Source of the DNA: an uncultured Actinomycetota bacterium
Lineage (GTDB): Bacteria; Actinomycetota; Thermoleophilia; Solirubrobacterales; Solirubrobacteraceae
Assembly: GCA_963758705.1 (NCBI GenBank)
Contig: CAVWWN010000023.1
Location: forward strand, 542,050-606,049
Direction of reading: 5' to 3'
DNA: 64,000 nt
Below, piece by piece: positions 30,306 through 64,000 of this stretch. The translations under genes and the position numbers were made by a program. The notes under the pieces were generated by a model, which saw only the letters and a program-made list of their open reading frames with translations, did no database searches and was not told where the DNA came from. Each line of letters begins with the position of its first letter. Positions within the stretch are counted from its first letter, which is position 1.

Positions 30306-33976
<3,671 letters not shown>

Positions 33977-48628: not shown

Positions 48629-48973
48629 CTACCGCGGGTCGAGCACGAAGACGCTGATGTCCCGCGCGGTGCGGGTGCGGTAGTCGTCAAAGCCCGCATA
48701 CTGCTCGTTCATCCGCCGCCACAGGTCCGCGCGCTCCTCCCCCTCGGCCACACGCGCGCTCACCCGGCGCCGGTCCGCACCCACCTCCACCTCGGCGTCG
48801 GGATGGGCCTTGAGGTTGAGCGCCCACGCCGGGGCGCGCTCGTTCCCGGCGTTGGAACCGATGATGACGATGCGCTCGCCGTCGGCGAGGTAGACGACGG
48901 GCGCGGGACGGGTCGCAAGTCCGGCGCGCGACGCACACCGGTGAGATGTGGCTGTGCGCCGGCCCGCCCGCAC
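48629..48973 (-). CDS. Deazaflavin (F420)-dependent nitroreductase-family (DUF385-like) protein, C-terminal about 100 aa; the N-terminus continues upstream in other frames (frameshifted)
   Basis: GLATRPAPVVYLADGERIVIIGSNAGNERAPAWALNLKAHPDAEVEVGADRRRVSARVAEGEERADLWRRMNEQYAGFDDYRTRTARDISVFVLDPR. Upstream, HLTGVRRA sits in a different frame, so there is at least 1 break near 48925-48945. The true start was not resolved (somewhere up to about 49208). Confidence 0.5.
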   Translation of the reverse strand: MRAGRRTATSHRCASRAGLATRPAPVVYLADGERIVIIGSNAGNERAPAWALNLKAHPDAEVEVGADRRRVSARVAEGEERADLWRRMNEQYAGFDDYRTRTARDISVFVLDPR

Positions 48974-57091: not shown

Positions 57092-57604
57092 TCAGCCGAC
57101 GAGAAGCTCCACCCCGGCGGCAACTATGAGCCCGCCGCCGGCGAGCCCGAGGCTCAGCACGCGACTGCGCTGGAGCGCCGGGACCGTGCGCGCAACCGCT
57201 GCGGCGATGGCGAGCCCGGCGCCGGCCAGCAGTGCGCTGGACAGCGCCTGCTCTCCGGCCTGCCCCCACACGTTCGTTGTCCAACTGTGGTCGATGACGC
57301 CGAAGGTGATGTTATCGATGCTCAGCGCCACCGGCAGGACCCACACCCAGCGGGTGCCGGCGGTCTGGCGCGACATCATGGCCAGAGCGATCCAGTACAG
57401 GCCGAGCGCGACAAAAACCCCGGTCGCGGCGACGGTGGAGACGCCGCCAGGCATGCTCCAGTGCAACGCCGTGCCGAGCAGGAATCCCCCGGCATCGGCG
57501 ATGCCGAAGGAGACGGCAAACGGCACGCGCGCCCTGGGGCTGATCACCGTACCAACCGCCAAACAGGCGATGAAGCTGTCGATTCCGAGTAGCAGAAAGC
57601 CCAT
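57092..57604 (-). CDS. MntP-like (DUF204 x2) putative manganese efflux membrane protein
   Basis: 170 aa with two repeats, each carrying S-x-D motifs (LGIDSFIACLAVG and ALSIDNITFGV). Confidence 0.55.
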   Translation of the reverse strand: MGFLLLGIDSFIACLAVGTVISPRARVPFAVSFGIADAGGFLLGTALHWSMPGGVSTVAATGVFVALGLYWIALAMMSRQTAGTRWVWVLPVALSIDNITFGVIDHSWTTNVWGQAGEQALSSALLAGAGLAIAAAVARTVPALQRSRVLSLGLAGGGLIVAAGVELLVG

Positions 57605-57777: not shown

Positions 57778-59478
57778 CTACTCCGGCAGCGCGAACGCGA
57801 ACAGCGCGGCGCCACCCGCCTGCGCGAGCGCGCCGGGGTAGAACCCTTCGGTCCAGGCGCCGTATCCAACCGGCACGGCGATGTACTGCCGCCCATCGAC
57901 GCTGTAGGTGCTCGGGCTCGAGTGATGGCCGCTGCCGCACGTGAACTCCCAGAGGAGCTCACCGCTGGTGTCGTTGAACGCCCAGTACTTGCCCGCGGGG
58001 CCACCAGCGAGCACGAGGCCGCCGGCGGTGGCCAGCACCGACGCGGTCATCGGGTGCTCCTGGGTGAAGCGCCACTTCTCCTGGCCCGTGGCCGGGTCGA
58101 ACGCCGAGACGTAGCCGGACACATCCTCTGTGTCCACCGCGACGCCCGCGCCCCAGTACGGGATGCTCTCCTTGAACTCCCGCCGCCGCCGTGTGGCGGT
58201 CGCACCCACATCCTGCACCGGGCAGTAGAAGAGCCCCGTCTTCTGGCTGTACGCGGCGTGGGTCCATTCCTTGGCGCCAGCCGGGCCGGGCCAGAAGTGG
58301 ACCGGCTCCCCCTCCTTCTCGGGGTACAGCCTCGGCGTCACCTTGCCGTTGGAGTCGATCTCGCCCCAGGTGATGCGGTCGACGAACGGCACGACCCGGA
58401 TCAGGCTGCAGTCAGTGCGATCCAGGATAAAGAAGTACCCGTTCTTGTCGAAGTGTCCGGAGCACTTGCGTCCGTCCATCTCGAACAGGATGTTCTCCAT
58501 CGTCGAGTCGTAGTCCCACAAGTCGTGTGGGGTGTACTGATAGTGCGACTTGATCTTGCCGGTGTCGGGATCCACCGCCACCACGGAGTCCGTGTAGAGG
58601 TTGTCGCCCTCACGCACCTCCCCGTCGAAATCGGGACATGGGTTGCCCGTATTGAAGTACAGGAGGTTGAGTTCCGGGTCGTAGGTCGGCGTGATCCAGC
58701 AGTTCGCGCCGCCGCGCGCCCAGGCCTCGCCGTCCGAGGGCCAGGTCTCGGACCCCGGCTCCCCGGGAGCGGGGACCATGTAGCACCGCCACACGCGCTC
58801 TCCGGTCTCGAGTTTGAACGCGTCGGCGTGGCCGCGCACCCCGAACTCTCCACCCGAGCTTCCGACGATGACCATGTCCTTGACGATGAGCGGGGCGACG
58901 GTCGCGCTCTCGCCGGCCCGTACGTCCCCGAACGGCTGATCCCAGACGAGCGCACCGGTCTTGGCGTCAAGCGCGGTCACGTGGGCATTGAGGGTGGCCA
59001 TGAAGACCTTCCCGTCAGCCACGGCGCAGCCCCGGTTGACGTTGCCGCAGCACAGCGACACGTCGTACGGGGACGCACGGTGATAGCGCCACAGCTCCGC
59101 TCCGGTCTTGGCGTCAAGCGCCCACATCCAGCCATCCCAGCCGGTCACGTACATGACGCCGTCGACGACGAGCGGAGACGCCTCGAACGAATAGGTCGAG
59201 GCACCCGAGTGCATTCCCACCGAGCCGCACTGGAACACCCACGCGGGCCTCAGATCCTTGACGTTCGAGGTATTGATCTGGTCGAGCAGGCTGTAGCGCT
59301 GCCCGTCGTAGGCCCCGTAGTAGCTGAGCCAGTTGTGGGGCTCCGCTTCGCGGGCCTTGAGGATTCGGTCGTAGTTGACGCCTTTCGCGACGTCCGGCGC
59401 AGCGCCGACGTAGCCGGGGCTCAGATTCCGGAAGTCGACAGCCTCACCTGCGTCGACGTAATCAGTCTCAGTTGCCAT
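57778..59478 (-). CDS. PQQ-dependent dehydrogenase, methanol/ethanol family (XoxF-like, DYD lanthanide signature), with no recognisable signal peptide
   Basis: Start at the internal ATG at 59478, with AAAGGAG 7 nt upstream. The vicinal Cys pair sits in VSLCCGNVNRG. TPHDLWDYDS is present. An eight-blade propeller pattern with W-docking motifs is visible. The N-terminus MATETDYVDAGEAVDFRNLSPGYVG has no hydrophobic h-region. Confidence 0.9.
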   Translation of the reverse strand: MATETDYVDAGEAVDFRNLSPGYVGAAPDVAKGVNYDRILKAREAEPHNWLSYYGAYDGQRYSLLDQINTSNVKDLRPAWVFQCGSVGMHSGASTYSFEASPLVVDGVMYVTGWDGWMWALDAKTGAELWRYHRASPYDVSLCCGNVNRGCAVADGKVFMATLNAHVTALDAKTGALVWDQPFGDVRAGESATVAPLIVKDMVIVGSSGGEFGVRGHADAFKLETGERVWRCYMVPAPGEPGSETWPSDGEAWARGGANCWITPTYDPELNLLYFNTGNPCPDFDGEVREGDNLYTDSVVAVDPDTGKIKSHYQYTPHDLWDYDSTMENILFEMDGRKCSGHFDKNGYFFILDRTDCSLIRVVPFVDRITWGEIDSNGKVTPRLYPEKEGEPVHFWPGPAGAKEWTHAAYSQKTGLFYCPVQDVGATATRRRREFKESIPYWGAGVAVDTEDVSGYVSAFDPATGQEKWRFTQEHPMTASVLATAGGLVLAGGPAGKYWAFNDTSGELLWEFTCGSGHHSSPSTYSVDGRQYIAVPVGYGAWTEGFYPGALAQAGGAALFAFALPE

Positions 59479-59491
59479 CAACTGCTCCTTT

Positions 59492-59944
59492 CTACGGCCG
59501 CGGCTGGGGCGGGCGGTCGAGCTTGGCTTCGTCCGGGACTTCACCACTGACGACGATCGTGCCGGTCAGGCCCCGACCCTCGTCGTTGCCGGTCCGGGAG
59601 CCATACCAGTAGTAGCCCGGGCCGTCGAGCGAGAGGGTCGCCCTCCCCTTCGAGAAGTTCACCAGCCAGATGAACTTGGAATCGCCGTTGCTCGGCAGCA
59701 CCGCGCAGTGCGAGTTGTTGTCGTCGTTGATGATCTCGAGTTCCAGTTCGCCCGCATGAGGGAGGACCAGGACGCCGGGGTCGAAAACCAGCTCGTCCAA
59801 CGGGATTCGGACAGTGGCGTGCATCTTGCCGTCGGATCCCTCCTCGGCCATCCCGACGTTTCCGCGGCCGAGCACTCGTCCGAGTGTCACGCCGTTCTGT
59901 TTTGCCAGCCCCTGAATCACGCTCTCGTCGACTGTGGCGGTCAC
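59492..59944 (-). CDS. Small beta-sandwich (cupredoxin-like?) protein co-transcribed upstream of the PQQ dehydrogenase (PQQ-associated family)
   Basis: 150 aa with a GTG start after GGAGGGAGAG; the stop lies 13 nt before the dehydrogenase ATG. ...LVLPHAGELELEIINDDNNSHCAVLPSNGDSKFIWLVNFSKGRATLSLDGPGYYWYGSRTGNDEGRGLTGTIVVSG. It resembles what I recall as the MSMEG_3727-type PQQ-associated protein; this is unverified. Confidence 0.5.
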   Translation of the reverse strand: MTATVDESVIQGLAKQNGVTLGRVLGRGNVGMAEEGSDGKMHATVRIPLDELVFDPGVLVLPHAGELELEIINDDNNSHCAVLPSNGDSKFIWLVNFSKGRATLSLDGPGYYWYGSRTGNDEGRGLTGTIVVSGEVPDEAKLDRPPQPRP

Positions 59945-60139
59945 GGCGAGTCTCTCCCTCCATCCGGAAAATGGGCGGAACGAACCTAACAGGGGCAGGG
60001 CGATGTCACAACCGAGCCATCGAGAGAAGACCGACCGGACAGGGTGTGAACCTGACCAACCGGGTAGGTACCGACACTGGCCGGTCAGTCACCCACAGTG
60101 ACCGATCGGTCAGACATCACGATCACCTGAAAATCAGTG

Positions 60140-61210
60140 TCACCCGAGAGTGATCGTAGCGGCGTCAGTGACCCGCAGATGCTCGAGGGCGGTCCCGCTG
60201 GACTCGCGGACCCTCAGCGTCTCGGCCAGGCCGGCGTGGCGGCCGCCCGCCAGCCCATCGGCGAGGAGCGCGCCCCCGTGCGCGGCCGAGCTAGCGCGGC
60301 CGGGCACGAGCGACACCACCGGAGCAACGTCAGCCAACGAACCGGCCAGGCGGGTGACGAGCGCGGGTAGGCGGGCCAACCGGCCCGAGACAACGATCTC
60401 ACGCGGGGCCGGCACGCTGACGAGCATTGCGCGCACCGCCTTGGCGGCGGCCTCCAGCAGCGCCGTCCAGCCCTCGGCGAGGTCCGCCGAGTTCCACAAC
60501 GCGCTCAGGTCGGTCATGTCAAGGGTCCCCCCCGGGTCCAGGGCCCCGCCGCTGTACAGCGTGTCCTTGCCCAGCACAGGGGCGAGCAGGTAGGCGACCT
60601 CGCCGTCCAGTGCGCCCACGGCACGCGCGCCGAGAGGTCCCGACGATCCGCCCATGCCGTCGACGATCTGTCCCTCGTCGATCGCGAGCGCGGCGGTGAA
60701 CGCGCCTCCGAGCTCGATTAGGACCATCGAGCTCTGACGAGGGGAGATCCCCAGTCGCGACGATTGATCGGCGATCGCGTAGGCCGCGGCACACACCTTG
60801 TCCGCGGTCCCCATGTCGATCCGGTTGTACTTCCGGTGAGGCGGCACCGAGGGCAGGTGGATGACGCCGGGACCGAAGACGACGGGCAGTCCGCTGCCGA
60901 TGAGGGCCCGCAGCAGCGAGCGCAGCCCGCGGACGCCGGCGTCGGCATGGGCCTCGTCGGGGCGCACCAGCACCATCTCGGCCAGCTCGCGCTCCCCGGT
61001 GTCGGCTGCGGCCACGAGCGGCAGCCCATAGCCACTCGGACCGTAGACGAGGTCATAGGGGCCGTGGACGGTGAGCGCCTCCAGCAGCGGCCGGCTGTCT
61101 GCGCTGAGCGTTCCGGCGTGGAACACCTGCTCGACGACCGGTTCGCCGTCCTCGAGCACGCACAGGTCGAATGAGACCGTACCGGGGTCGACGCCAGCTA
61201 CCCGGGGCAT
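60140..61210 (-). CDS. ASKHA-fold (acetate/sugar kinase/Hsp70/actin-like) protein, DUF1464-like
   Basis: 356 aa. N-terminal VAGVDPGTVSFDLCVL is a phosphate-1 DxGxT motif. IDMGTADK and LIELGGAFTA look like phosphate-2/adenosine-type motifs. Confidence 0.55.
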   Translation of the reverse strand: MPRVAGVDPGTVSFDLCVLEDGEPVVEQVFHAGTLSADSRPLLEALTVHGPYDLVYGPSGYGLPLVAAADTGERELAEMVLVRPDEAHADAGVRGLRSLLRALIGSGLPVVFGPGVIHLPSVPPHRKYNRIDMGTADKVCAAAYAIADQSSRLGISPRQSSMVLIELGGAFTAALAIDEGQIVDGMGGSSGPLGARAVGALDGEVAYLLAPVLGKDTLYSGGALDPGGTLDMTDLSALWNSADLAEGWTALLEAAAKAVRAMLVSVPAPREIVVSGRLARLPALVTRLAGSLADVAPVVSLVPGRASSAAHGGALLADGLAGGRHAGLAETLRVRESSGTALEHLRVTDAATITLG

Positions 61211-61221
61211 ATCATTGGACC

Positions 61222-61599
61222 ATGAGCAAAGAGCGGACCTACACCGAGGCTGAGATCCCCGCCAAGCTGTCGGAGCTCGGCCTGGATGAGTGGTATTACG
61301 AGGGTGACTGGATCCGGCGCAAGTACAACACCGACGGCTGGCCCACCACCCTGATGGCCGTCAACGCCGTCGGCTACCTGTGCGAGGCCGCCGGCCATCA
61401 CGCCGACCTCAACGTCACCTGGGGCAAGCTCTGGGTCAAGCTGGCCACGCACTCGGCCGGCGGGATCACCGACAAGGACTTCACCCTGGCTCGCAAGATC
61501 GAGGACACCGTGCTGTGGCGGCCGGATGCCGACGGCCCGCTGGACGGACCGATGGGCAAGTTCGTGTTCTCGAAGTCGCGCCTGGGCGCCGGGGCCTGA
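61222..61599 (+). CDS. Pterin-4a-carbinolamine dehydratase (PCD/DCoH family)
   Basis: Start at internal M18. WIRRKYNTDGWPTTLMAVNAVGYLCEAAGHHADLNVTWGKLWVKLATHSAGGITDKDFTLARKIE carries the HH(P/A)D signature and the TH-x-x-GG-(L/I)-T block. Confidence 0.8.
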   Translation: MSKERTYTEAEIPAKLSELGLDEWYYEGDWIRRKYNTDGWPTTLMAVNAVGYLCEAAGHHADLNVTWGKLWVKLATHSAGGITDKDFTLARKIEDTVLWRPDADGPLDGPMGKFVFSKSRLGAGA

Positions 61600-61606
61600 C
61601 CAGGAC

Positions 61607-62467
61607 TCACAGGGTCTCCAGGGCGACGTCGTAGACGCCGCCGAGGTCGAGCACCGTCCCCTTGGCCTCGAACATCCGCTGCACGCAGCGTTTTTGCAGC
61701 TTCATCTTCGGACCGCCCACCGCCAGCGCGCCGAGCTTGAGCACACCGTCCTCCTCGGTGAGGTCATCGCCCCGGTCGACGGCCTCGACGCCCACCGGCT
61801 CGGCCGCCGAGTAGTCGATCACCACCCGCACGTCGCTCTGCGCCCAGCCGTCGTGCCGGAGGATCTGGATGCCGGCCGGCCCGGCGGCGAAGATCGCCAC
61901 GTGCCCGGCCAATGCCGCATCGAGAGCGTCGCTGGACGCGGGCTCGGTCACGTCGAAACCCGCCTCCTGCGCGACCGCGATACCCGAGGCCCGGCGATGG
62001 CGGCCCTTCATCACGTCGGGCGGGAACGTCAGGACGGTCACCTCGGCGCCCTCACGCCGCAGGAGCTCGGCGGTACGCAGTCCGACCGGCCCCACCCCAA
62101 TGACCGCGGTACGGCTGCCCTCGAGCGTCACCGCGCCGCGGACACGGGCCACGGCGGCAGCCGCGGTCGTATTCGAGCCGTCGGAGTCGAGCATGATCGA
62201 CGGTGTGAACGGCTCGAAGAACAGCTCCTGGGCCGCAGCGAACACCGCCTCGCCGTCGCGCACCTTCGACCCGCCGATCCAGAACGCGGTGTTGGCCAGC
62301 CCATCAGGACCGCGCGGGAAGATCGCGCCCTGGACGACGCCGGCCAGGTTCTCGGCGGTGATCTGCCCGTAGCCGAGGACGACGTCCACACCGGCGTCGT
62401 ACGCCGCGATCGCGTCAAACGCGCTCGGATGCTGGTCGGTGTCGAGCTGAAGCAGGATCTTCTTCAT
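61607..62467 (-). CDS. NAD(P)-dependent methylene-tetrahydromethanopterin dehydrogenase (MtdA/MtdB family)
   Basis: 286 aa. MKKILLQLDTDQHPSAFDAIAAYDAGVD...IMLDSDGSNTTAAAAVA...IGVGPVGLRTAELL...GGPKMKLQKRCVQRMFE is collinear with Methylobacterium extorquens MtdA as I remember it (LLFQFDTD...PSVFD, MLDSNGSNTTAAA, GGLKLKLH). Confidence 0.85.
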   Translation of the reverse strand: MKKILLQLDTDQHPSAFDAIAAYDAGVDVVLGYGQITAENLAGVVQGAIFPRGPDGLANTAFWIGGSKVRDGEAVFAAAQELFFEPFTPSIMLDSDGSNTTAAAAVARVRGAVTLEGSRTAVIGVGPVGLRTAELLRREGAEVTVLTFPPDVMKGRHRRASGIAVAQEAGFDVTEPASSDALDAALAGHVAIFAAGPAGIQILRHDGWAQSDVRVVIDYSAAEPVGVEAVDRGDDLTEEDGVLKLGALAVGGPKMKLQKRCVQRMFEAKGTVLDLGGVYDVALETL

Positions 62468-63807
62468 CGGATGTCCTCCCGTCGAGGTTCGGGAAAGCTG
62501 AGCAGGCCCCAGTCCAGCGGGCCCTCCTGGCGGTAGCTCTTATGCAGGCCGCGGGCGATCGTGGCCTTCATCAGCTCCTTGCCGAGGTAGAAGGCGTGCG
62601 CGGGGTCGCTCACCCCGAGCTGCTCGAACACCGCGTACATGTTGGCCTCGCGGATGAACCGCTCGCCGTTGAACGCGTAGAGCCAATCGGCATCGGCGAA
62701 CAGGCGGTAGTTGGCGTCGGCGATCTGCGCCTGCATTGCCCGTAGCTCATCCTCCGAGGGCGCATGCATCGACTCGTCCCTGGTCGTGACCAGGCCGGAG
62801 TCGATGTGCTTGGGGGGCCGCGCCTCGCGCTGGGCCACGTGCATGATCTGCGCCGCCAGGACCGTCTCGCGGACCGCCCCGCGGGCCCACCCGATCACCT
62901 CGGTGGTCAGGACCGCGGTGATGCCCACCTCCTGGCAGAAGCCGATCAGCACCGCCGTGACCCCGGTCGAATCGGCCTCCGTCAGCTCCGTGAGGTTGCC
63001 GATGCCCATCAGCATGCCGGCGTCGGGATGGCGGCGACGGACCTCGACGTAGCGGGCCAGCGACGCGGCGAAGCCCGAGTTGATGGGAGCCAAGATGGAG
63101 TCGAGCAGATAGGGCCGGTCCAGTTGGTCCATGCGGGCGGCCATCCGGTCCAGGCTGTCGAGGTCCTCGGGATCGTCGGTGATCAGGACCGGGGTCGCGC
63201 GCAGGTCGGCGACCATGTCGATCGTCCGCGGGGTGAGGCTGAGCACGTAGTCCACGCCGGCCGCATCCGCCATTCGGATGTGCTCGGGGTCAAGGGTGTC
63301 GATACTCACCGCCAGCCCACGCTCGCGCAGCGCCGCAATCGTCCGCGGCCCCTCGGCCAGCCACGAGCGATCGAGCGAGAGACCGAGGTCGATCACGTCG
63401 GCCCCCTCCGCGCGATAGGCCTCGGCCCGGTCGATCACCTGTTCATGCGAGAGCGTCTGGACGTCGTTGATCTCGGCGAACACGCGCACATCTCGGGGTC
63501 CGAGCTCGGCCCGCACCGCCGCCCGGCCGTACCACTCCGGCAGCGAGCGGACGTCCGCCGGGCCCTTGCGCACCGGCAAGCCGGTGGCCTGCTCCAGCGT
63601 GTCCACATCGCCTTCACACAGGCCCGGGATCACGATGTTGTCGACTCCCGATGGCACCTCCAGCCGCCGCGCGATCCAGCGCGTCGTCATCAGCGCGGCG
63701 ACGCTGATGTTCATCACGGCGATCTCGTGGCCGATATCCAGCGTGGAGACGACGCTGCGAAGGGCCGGCTCGGCCAGACGACCGGTGACGAACAGGGTGT
63801 CAGCCAA
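62464..63807 (-). CDS. Dihydropteroate-synthase-like pterin-binding protein (N-terminal extra domain + Pterin_bind), methanopterin-biosynthesis type
   Basis: Start trimmed to the TTG at 63807, overlapping the stop of the upstream SDR. ...AEGADVIDLGLS...LAVSIDTLDPEHI...VDYVLSL...YLLDSILAPINSGF...GMLMGIGNLTELTEADSTGV...VLTTE matches a DHPS TIM-barrel pattern. ATGA coupling to the mtd gene. Confidence 0.7.
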   Translation of the reverse strand: MADTLFVTGRLAEPALRSVVSTLDIGHEIAVMNISVAALMTTRWIARRLEVPSGVDNIVIPGLCEGDVDTLEQATGLPVRKGPADVRSLPEWYGRAAVRAELGPRDVRVFAEINDVQTLSHEQVIDRAEAYRAEGADVIDLGLSLDRSWLAEGPRTIAALRERGLAVSIDTLDPEHIRMADAAGVDYVLSLTPRTIDMVADLRATPVLITDDPEDLDSLDRMAARMDQLDRPYLLDSILAPINSGFAASLARYVEVRRRHPDAGMLMGIGNLTELTEADSTGVTAVLIGFCQEVGITAVLTTEVIGWARGAVRETVLAAQIMHVAQREARPPKHIDSGLVTTRDESMHAPSEDELRAMQAQIADANYRLFADADWLYAFNGERFIREANMYAVFEQLGVSDPAHAFYLGKELMKATIARGLHKSYRQEGPLDWGLLSFPEPRREDIR

Positions 63808-64000
63808 CGGTGCCGCCGTTGACGTTAACCGCCTGACCCGTGACGAAGGCGGCGGCCGGCGACGCCAGCCACACCGCCGCACCCGCGACGTCCTCCGGCC
63901 GGCCCCAACGCCCCAGCGGCGTGCCCGCGGCGACCCCGTCGTAGAAGGCGCGGTCCACGCCTGCGCCGAATGCCGTCTCGATCCAACCGGGACACAGGAC
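63800..64000 (-). CDS. SDR-family oxidoreductase, C-terminal part only (the gene continues beyond the right edge)
   Basis: My translation of the minus strand gives VLCPGWIETAFGAGVDRAFYDGVAAGTPLGRWGRPEDVAGAAVWLASPAAAFVTGQAVNVNGGTVG*, a typical classical-SDR C-terminus. Confidence 0.6.
   Translation of the reverse strand, partial: VLCPGWIETAFGAGVDRAFYDGVAAGTPLGRWGRPEDVAGAAVWLASPAAAFVTGQAVNVNGGTVG

Follow-up and report, generated by a model that had tools for sequence, protein, structure and literature searches.

The closest described counterparts of the locus analysed here are the proteobacterial gene islands for tetrahydromethanopterin (H4MPT) and methylofuran, such as those of the Methylorubrum extorquens type and the island on plasmid pTB101 of Aquabacterium olei. 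Our subject is the right end of a stretch of 64,000 nt (referred to as the window) from an uncultured actinobacterium of the order Solirubrobacterales (assembly GCA_963758705.1, contig CAVWWN010000023.1, positions 542,050 to 606,049), where the gene for an alcohol dehydrogenase dependent on pyrroloquinoline quinone (PQQ-ADH) lies next to genes for H4MPT-linked enzymes. We consider it highly probable that these genes belong to a conserved island of soil Solirubrobacterales that combines a lanthanide-type PQQ-ADH with an archaeal-like, H4MPT-linked oxidation of formaldehyde. The island shares with its proteobacterial counterparts the methylene-H4MPT dehydrogenase homolog Mtd, Mch, Fae, FhcABCD and a protein similar to dihydropteroate synthase (DHPS) with a DUF6513 domain, as well as CitG-like, RimK/MptN-like, ATP-grasp, MptG, DUF447 and MfnB proteins, at pairwise identities of 27-52%. 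The pathway is thus known in kind, but its actinobacterial version appears to differ in the PQQ enzyme, in Mtd, in subunit B of the formyltransferase complex, in a short-chain dehydrogenase/reductase (SDR) and in the presence of a pterin-4a-carbinolamine dehydratase (PCD) and a DUF1464 protein as additional conserved members. Mtd seems to belong to neither the MtdA nor the MtdB clade, and subunit B resembles archaeal FwdB and carries a four-cysteine (4-Cys) motif. No DmrA or AfpA/DmrB reductase is found in the island, and beside the DHPS-like gene, at the place of a flavoprotein in A. olei, lies the gene for the atypical SDR. The host, an actinobacterium, is monoderm.

Known Gram-positive methylotrophs possess NAD- or mycofactocin-linked methanol dehydrogenases, and their handling of formaldehyde is based on mycothiol or on the ribulose monophosphate (RuMP) route. 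A preliminary description of the window, made from its sequence, had given Proteobacteria, Planctomycetes and archaea as the distribution of the H4MPT pathway. The host is indeed unusual and the route uncharacterised in its phylum, but H4MPT-linked genes have been mentioned in passing for the same phylum and class. "Actinomycetes" are listed among the phyla with H4MPT/methanofuran genes on the basis of unpublished genomes (Chistoserdova 2016, PMC5020050), and mch and fwdAB were seen in one Thermoleophilia metagenome-assembled genome (MAG), "MENDH-Thermo", in which H4MPT synthesis was judged incomplete (McDaniel et al. 2020, PMC7438021). Both are one-line mentions, whereas the biosynthesis genes, the link to PQQ and the conservation in multiple species are documented here. 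Public MAG records already name Mch and Mtd homologs. Full-text searches of the literature, which have incomplete coverage and are no proof of absence, yielded no description of the island.

A PQQ-dependent dehydrogenase of the methanol/ethanol family is likewise linked to H4MPT genes in another uncultured soil lineage, on a Gemmatimonadetes soil contig in which xoxF lies beside genes for H4MPT biosynthesis and oxidation (Butterfield et al. 2016, PMC5103831). The enzyme of this other phylum groups with proteobacterial XoxF (PMC5103831), whereas the Solirubrobacterales enzyme lacks a signal peptide and forms a pair with a protein of the MSMEG_3727 family. The same pairing, with pqq genes and an MntP-type membrane protein linked to it, is found in the comparable PQQ cluster MSMEG_3721-3727 reported for M. 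smegmatis and on a Streptomyces plasmid; among these loci, only the Solirubrobacterales arrangement fuses the PQQ unit to an H4MPT island. The enzyme of the window resembles PedH/ExaF and XoxF in its PQQ propeller of eight blades, its vicinal Cys-Cys pair and the Asp that stands two positions past the catalytic Asp. It differs from them by the missing signal peptide and by the lack of a nearby gene for cytochrome cL or XoxJ.

Gene content and conservation of the island

The preliminary description had proposed an operon of SDR, DHPS-like and mtd genes with overlapping start and stop codons, flanked by genes for PCD (DCoH) and a DUF1464 protein and adjoining the gene for a PQQ dehydrogenase. 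All of these genes were recovered at the given coordinates, all but the SDR fragment with Pfam or NCBIfam matches (Table 1). The DHPS-like gene, probably from a TTG start, overlaps the end of the SDR gene with its stop codon in the sequence TTGGCTGA at 63807-63800, and the stop codon of the DHPS-like gene overlaps the start of mtd in an ATGA at 62467-62464. PCD is encoded by the sole plus-strand gene of the set, which is convergent with mtd and divergent from the DUF1464 gene. The latter is the first gene of a run that continues with the MSMEG_3727-family gene, which was absent from the initial gene list, and the PQQ-ADH gene.

To describe the conservation of this arrangement, one genome per GTDB species was scanned, which gave at least 145 stretches with relatives of the mtd gene. 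The best 80 of them were fetched, and all 80 come from MAGs labelled Solirubrobacterales, Solirubrobacteraceae, uncultured Actinomycetota or Actinomycetes. These labels place the host in the phylum Actinomycetota, class Thermoleophilia, order Solirubrobacterales, as the actinobacterial character of the sequence had led one to expect. Mtd homologs with 82-88% identity are also very numerous in soil metagenomes, and the few named ones belong to Solirubrobacterales MAGs. All fetched loci were searched by tblastn with 16 genes of one relative as queries, and the counts given below refer to 83 sequences (81 distinct loci and the window). The conserved order is mch-fhcC-fhcD-fhcA-fhcB-ATPgrasp-citG / fae-SDR-DHPSlike-mtd / PCD / DUF1464-MSMEG_3727-PQQ-ADH, and it is kept wherever the contig reaches (71-83 of 83 sequences, depending on the gene). 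Such recurrence across species shows that the arrangement is not due to chance. Of the 82 sequences other than the window (duplicates included), 79 have fae, a match to mch was obtained in 73 loci, and the PQQ-ADH gene is adjacent to H4MPT genes in 78 of the 83 sequences.

The preliminary description had predicted fae, mch and fhcABCD past the right edge of the window, and close relatives bear this out by proxy. Three loci (L003, L091 and L092) are collinear with positions 51-64 kb of the window, with about 93% nucleotide identity over 8-13 kb, and share its left flank too (genes for a membrane protein, an MFS protein, a GntR-aminotransferase and a DUF488 protein). In L091 and L092 fae precedes the SDR gene, and the opposite strand carries genes for a CitG-like and an ATP-grasp protein followed by fhcB-A-D; both loci break off within the gene that takes the place of fhcC. 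L003 gave tblastn matches to fae, to the CitG-like and ATP-grasp genes and to fhc genes, and also reaches mch. The relatives thus have a fae-SDR-mptH-mtd operon, of which the SDR gene is the second gene.

Genes for methanopterin biosynthesis, which were also to be sought on this side, were found in more distant relatives (L083 and L084). There mch is followed by genes for a RimK/MptN-like ligase and a HisA/HisF-family protein, further on by those for an MfnF-like protein (TIGR03123, "probable H4MPT-linked C1 transfer pathway protein", 314 bits, cut-off 244), an MfnE-like kinase and an MfnB-like synthase, and L084 has an MptG-like protein of the beta-RFAP-synthase family. Genes for DUF447, FolE, PqqB (367 bits, cut-off 245) and a PqqC-family protein then follow, pqqB and pqqC marking the far end of the island in L084. 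The length of the island in the relatives is about 25-35 kb. Judged by the gene content of these relatives, the genes in the window represent the left (window-side) end of a chromosomal C1 island that is conserved in Solirubrobacterales. By its gene families, this island would join a PQQ dehydrogenase, a full H4MPT/methanofuran pathway of formaldehyde oxidation, the biosynthesis of both cofactors and that of PQQ. It is established to which families the window genes belong, that their order is conserved and that collinear relatives have the remaining genes of the pathway.

Table 1. Island genes in the window, with window positions and supporting matches, and pathway proteins of relatives with their model scores
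Feature	Position (nt)	Strand	Evidence
SDR, C-terminal fragment (66 codons)	63800-64000	-	Translation; stop TGA 63802-63800; gene cut by window edge
DHPS-like pterin-binding protein, 447 aa from probable TTG start	62464-63807	-	Pfam DUF6513, Pterin_bind, PterinBD-DUF4346; TIGR00284 163 bits
Mtd, NAD(P)-dependent methylene-H4MPT dehydrogenase homolog (MtdA/B/C family), 286 aa	61607-62467	-	Pfam Mpt_N 89 bits (cut-off 27)
PCD/DCoH, pterin-4a-carbinolamine dehydratase, 125 aa	61222-61599	+	Pfam Pterin_4a 82 bits (81.8; cut-off 26); NF002017 80.4 bits (cut-off 80)
DUF1464 protein, 356 aa, ASKHA-type (acetate/butyrate-kinase-like) putative ATPase/kinase	60140-61210	-	Pfam DUF1464 260 bits
MSMEG_3727-family "PQQ-associated" protein, 150 aa	59492-59944	-	TIGR04339 247 bits; PF23509 244 bits
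PQQ-ADH, lanthanide-type, 566 aa from MATETDY	57778-59478	-	TIGR03075 601 bits (cut-off 480)
Membrane protein, 170 aa, directly 3' of PQQ-ADH	57092-57604	-	No Pfam match in window
Fae (L006, 93% DNA identity to window)			TIGR03126 252 bits (cut-off 118)
FhcD (L006)			TIGR03119 372 bits (cut-off 293)
FhcA (L006)			TIGR03121 655 bits (cut-off 393)
FhcC (L006)			TIGR03122 216 bits (cut-off 131)
Mch (L002), 220-aa fragment			TIGR03120 255 bits (cut-off 229)

The pterin-linked enzymes and the PQQ dehydrogenase unit

The assignment of Mtd to MtdA or MtdB held at the level of the family. The protein belongs to the H4MPT dehydrogenases (MtdA/B/C) and aligns end to end with the structures of M. extorquens MtdA (1LU9/6TGE; 187 bits, E 3.6e-54). 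Its identity amounts to 40% with MtdA and to 31-32% with MtdB-type proteins that are encoded on plasmids and named "NAD(P)-dependent methylene-H4MPT dehydrogenase"; MtdA and the MtdB-type protein of A. olei are 33% identical to each other. In a neighbour-joining tree without bootstrap support and without a verified MtdC reference, however, Mtd fell within neither the MtdA nor the MtdB clade and formed its own deep branch together with the environmental cluster P0242. This cluster is its nearest neighbour (51% identity) in a family of 983 clusters at 50% identity, and a cluster look-up of the nearest Mtd representatives gave almost no names.

The DHPS-like protein was found not to be a canonical FolP, as an H4MPT-related role requires. 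The FolP model TIGR01496 gave 16 bits against a cut-off of 162.6, and in a PDB search the protein reached 16-18 bits to DHPS and Sul3. Aligned with the DUF6513 protein of the A. olei H4MPT island, it shows 39% identity over its whole length (E 4e-96). It appears to be an ortholog of this protein and is a candidate for the MptH-type enzyme of methanopterin biosynthesis.

The SDR, which is cut by the window edge, was analysed whole in relatives only. Its orthologs are FabG-like (NF004198, 156 bits; Pfam adh_short_C2) with normal TGxxxGIG and NNAG motifs. In all of about 78 relatives the Tyr of the YxxxK motif is replaced by Phe, in few of them by His (F/H-AAVK), and the position of the catalytic Ser is taken by Trp (NIGWDH), so that only the Lys of the catalytic triad is left (e.g., L002 7862-8623). 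The suggestion that the SDR is a pteridine reductase of the PTR1/FolM type was not upheld: no specific similarity was seen, NF006598 gave 108 bits against a cut-off of 288, and FabG models scored best. A pterin may nevertheless be its substrate. The island gene lists of the relatives contain no Pfam match to a reductase of the dihydrofolate reductase type or of the flavoprotein type (DmrA, DmrB/AfpA). The SDR is a candidate dihydromethanopterin reductase, a role proposed only from the position of its gene next to that of the DHPS-like protein.

The start codons of the SDR gene are unusual. Over 72 loci TTG was found in 54, GTG in 4 and CTG in 11, the last in all nearest relatives of the window (L006 7886-8668; L092 6630-7411). 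No canonical start exists upstream of the Rossmann motif in 10 of the 11 genes with CTG, and gene callers therefore shorten the protein to 177 aa. Since the frame stays open, a CTG start or coupled translation seems likely in these relatives.

Subunit B of the formyltransferase complex was available from relatives only. The protein (L006 4162-5412, minus strand) aligned over its full length with archaeal FwdB (5T5I_B, 128 bits), to which it is nearer than to proteobacterial FhcB, and no FhcB chain was among its PDB matches at E values up to 0.01. An N-terminal CxxCxxxC...C motif, the 4-Cys motif of an Fe-S domain, is kept in 73 of 73 loci, while Cys-His is found in none of 69 sequences at the positions of the catalytic Cys118-His119 of FwdB. 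The island gene lists of the relatives hold neither an FwdD-type gene nor a molybdopterin Pfam domain. The steps described for the change from Fwd to Fhc include the loss of an Fe-S domain and that of the catalytic Cys, and FhcB of M. extorquens is without that domain (Hemmann et al. 2019). The actinobacterial subunit B may represent an intermediate between archaeal Fwd and proteobacterial Fhc. That it works as an active Fwd dehydrogenase is unlikely, considering the missing Cys-His and the missing FwdD gene.

For the PQQ-ADH, a lanthanide-dependent methanol dehydrogenase of the XoxF type had been suggested. The lanthanide part of this suggestion is supported by the motif WDYD, in which an Asp follows two residues after the catalytic Asp, a feature known to be diagnostic of lanthanide dependence. 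The motif is kept in 74 of 76 relatives; a PedH-type structure has WDFD, and Ser or Thr takes the place of the second Asp in the Ca-type enzymes 1FLG, 1KV9 and 1KB0. The likeness to XoxF in particular did not hold up. In a search of the PDB the PedH-type structures 6ZCV/6ZCW (365 bits) came first among the best solved relatives, which also include type II quinohaemoprotein alcohol dehydrogenases. Lower scores were reached by XoxF (4MAE, 295 bits) and MxaF (246 bits). By these scores the enzyme would stand in neither of the characterised clades (PedH, XoxF). Its N-terminus (MATETDYVDAGEAVDF...) is free of hydrophobic segments, as are those of 71 of 71 relatives, and even the longest open reading frame (ORF) that can be assumed adds just 23 residues, which are hydrophilic. 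The enzyme is thus predicted to be cytoplasmic. No gene for a cytochrome c (xoxG) or a solute-binding protein (XoxJ-type) was seen in the neighbourhoods examined.

The MSMEG_3727-family protein, which also has no signal peptide, is the presumed partner of the PQQ-ADH. Four residues of the family, Met43, His65, His81 and Cys82, do not vary among 77 sequences and could form a metal site; they are numbered along the aligned part of the window, which begins two codons before the first residue of the ORF. The protein has no CxxCH motif and no classical blue-copper order of ligands, and a single-sequence AlphaFold model reached a pLDDT of 40. The MSMEG_3727-family protein and the PQQ-ADH are 69% and 76% identical, respectively, to a pair encoded on the linear plasmid NZ_CP109439.1 of Streptomyces sp. 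NBC_01483 (L090 14004-20040). There the pair is followed by pqqB-C-D-E and an MntP-family gene, with transposases nearby, and no H4MPT genes lie within 14 kb. This plasmid copy and the M. smegmatis cluster suggest that the PQQ unit is a separable actinobacterial module, which was joined to the H4MPT island in Solirubrobacterales. Over the PQQ-ADH gene, the GC content of the window dips to 0.656 (interval 58001-60000), compared to about 0.70-0.74 nearby. Together with the plasmid copy, this gives a hint of horizontal spread of the PQQ unit among Actinomycetota.

A small membrane protein encoded after the PQQ-ADH gene belongs to the MntP family (PF02659) in many relatives (e.g., L001 14951-15514) and in Streptomyces (L090 19450-20040). 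Whether the membrane protein at this place in the window is linked to the PQQ-ADH is uncertain. If the PQQ-ADH is cytoplasmic and lanthanide-dependent, the protein in the MntP position could be a candidate metal transporter.

Proposed pathway and rival explanations

We propose the following sequence of reactions. The PQQ-ADH would oxidise methanol, its probable substrate, or a similar alcohol to the aldehyde in the cytoplasm, with the MSMEG_3727-family protein as presumed partner. Fae would condense formaldehyde with H4MPT, and the Mtd of the window would oxidise methylene-H4MPT to methenyl-H4MPT with NAD(P)+. Mch would then open the ring to give formyl-H4MPT, from which a complex of the FhcABCD type would transfer the formyl group to a methanofuran-type cofactor and release formate. 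The DHPS-like protein is expected to form the pterin-arylamine bond of methanopterin, and PCD could salvage oxidised pterin; SDR, PCD and DUF1464 are conserved accessory genes with presumptive roles. The substrates, the direction of flux, the identity of the cofactors, the location in the cytoplasm and the coupling of the PQQ enzyme to the pathway are inferred from sequence and gene order.

A lanthanide-type PQQ dehydrogenase combined with H4MPT-linked C1 oxidation, as first proposed for this locus, is supported by the gene families of the window, by synteny and by the pathway genes of collinear relatives. Several observations weigh against it. All genes to the right of position 64000, including fae, mch and fhc, lie outside the window itself and are known from relatives. 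Some proteins miss the cut-offs of the curated models: the DHPS-like protein that of TIGR00284 (163 versus 256.65 bits), FhcB of the relatives, in spite of a full-length match, that of its model (194 versus 328 bits), and the MptG-like protein of L084, by little, that of TIGR00144 (110.5 versus 113.5 bits). Moreover, the PQQ-ADH is by score nearer to PedH-type ethanol dehydrogenase than to XoxF, and its occurrence with the MSMEG_3727-family protein away from H4MPT genes in Streptomyces means that its coupling to the H4MPT genes may be merely positional.

The last two points lead to the main rival, which is physiological rather than biochemical in kind. The H4MPT module might serve general detoxification or dissimilation of formaldehyde, whatever its source, as in non-methylotrophic Burkholderia, the PQQ enzyme would be a PedH-like, lanthanide-type dehydrogenase for ethanol or multicarbon alcohols and a mere neighbour instead of a dedicated methanol dehydrogenase, and the organism would be no methylotroph. 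Besides the scores to PedH and XoxF, the transposase-flanked unit of PQQ-ADH, MSMEG_3727 and pqqBCDE on the Streptomyces plasmid and the GC dip over the PQQ-ADH region are in line with this explanation, and no genes of the serine cycle, the RuMP pathway or the Calvin-Benson-Bassham cycle were seen within the window. Yet the PQQ-ADH gene adjoins the H4MPT genes in 78 of 83 sequences, the same island closes with pqqB and pqqC in L084, and bona fide or proposed methanol oxidisers are known in which PQQ-ADH and H4MPT genes are linked. On balance we regard the detoxification explanation as rather unlikely. A study of soil by 13C-methanol stable isotope probing recovered MAGs of Solirubrobacteraceae and Thermoleophilia, which were not counted as methylotrophs. 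These labelled MAGs are suggestive of methanol use, with cross-feeding as another possible source of the label.

Two biochemical alternatives appear very improbable to us. Mtd, the DHPS-like protein, SDR and PCD might serve folate or another pterin, with Mtd acting as methylene-tetrahydrofolate dehydrogenase and the DHPS-like protein as a substitute for FolP. PCD and pterin reductases of the SDR type are usually tied to biopterin or folate metabolism, and MtdA of M. extorquens, the closest characterised enzyme (40% identity), is bifunctional with tetrahydrofolate according to the name of PDB entry 6TGE. However, collinear relatives have these genes in an operon with fae and beside mch and fhcABCD, relatives carry MptG-, MptN- and MfnB/E/F-like genes that are specific to H4MPT and methanofuran, and the DHPS-like protein fails the FolP model and is the apparent ortholog of the DUF6513 protein of an H4MPT island. 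We see just as little reason to assume that the pathway is reductive or ends in CO2, with subunit B as a working formylmethanofuran dehydrogenase (Fwd-like) and not a scaffold. The full-length alignment of subunit B with FwdB (5T5I_B, 128 bits) and the 4-Cys motif in 73 of 73 loci, in a domain lost from M. extorquens FhcB, would fit such a role, but Cys-His never occurs at the positions equivalent to Cys118-His119 (0 of 69), the island gene lists show no FwdD-type gene or molybdopterin Pfam domain, and neither mer nor mtr nor any F420-linked gene was seen in the island.

Returning to the combined route of alcohol and formaldehyde oxidation, a more far-reaching version of it can be formulated, which we put forward as a speculation and consider improbable as a whole. 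Oxidation of methanol would take place fully in the cytoplasm, by a lanthanide/PQQ enzyme without signal peptide and with the MSMEG_3727-family protein as electron partner. It would feed an H4MPT/methanofuran pathway with an intermediate Fwd-Fhc complex, the SDR would be a new, non-homologous dihydromethanopterin reductase, and DUF1464 and PCD would act in maintenance of the cofactor. If true, Gram-positive bacteria would have a new mode of methylotrophy, and lanthanides would have to be brought into the cytoplasm.

In soil, Solirubrobacterales rank with the most abundant Actinomycetota. With the island conserved in at least 145 species of this order, the sinks for plant-derived methanol and formaldehyde would gain a very abundant soil lineage, one that surveys based on xoxF would probably miss. 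It raises the questions of how a PQQ enzyme functions without a periplasm, which electron acceptor it uses and how lanthanides are delivered to it. As a possible intermediate between Fwd and Fhc, the FwdB-like subunit B bears on the debate about the origin of the bacterial H4MPT pathways.

Accessory genes and genomic surroundings

PCD passes the thresholds of the curated models (Table 1) and is kept at the same position in 82 of 83 sequences. A His-His...His...Asp pattern, presumably the PCD motif, can be read directly from its sequence. The divergent starts of the PCD and DUF1464 genes are only 11 bp apart (window 61188-61222), with the same spacing in L002. The ATG of the PCD gene follows 7 nt after the end of a sigma-70-like site, TCGACG-16-TATCAT. 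The short distance between this promoter-like site and the ATG suggests a leaderless PCD transcript.

The DUF1464 protein is likewise conserved in 82 of 83 sequences. A profile scan gave a weak match to butyrate kinase, and with a poor AlphaFold model (pLDDT 53) the top Foldseek matches in the PDB were all ASKHA kinases, with TM-scores of 0.3-0.4. From this weak evidence of sequence and fold, the protein is putatively ASKHA-like, which refers to the general fold only. DUF1464 is absent beside the Streptomyces copy of the PQQ-ADH gene (within 14 kb), a tblastn search with DUF1464 against plasmids gave no match, and PDB sequence searches with DUF1464 and with the MSMEG_3727-family protein gave no useful match.

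The window is chromosomal, with rpoB, rpoC and the gene for ribosomal protein L1 at 26-38 kb and genes for cell-envelope glycosyltransferases at 0-23 kb. An Rfam search of the region 56.5-64 kb gave no match. The rpoB gene (30306-33642, minus strand) is broken into two overlapping ORFs by a frameshift of 1 nt near 31950-31960, after ...VGAAVDGG. This is probably a consensus indel of a long-read assembly and calls for caution with the limits of other ORFs in the window. A protein of the F420H2-dependent quinone reductase family (PF04075, 93 bits), encoded at 48629-48973 on the minus strand at a distance of about 9 kb from the island, indicates that the organism uses F420.

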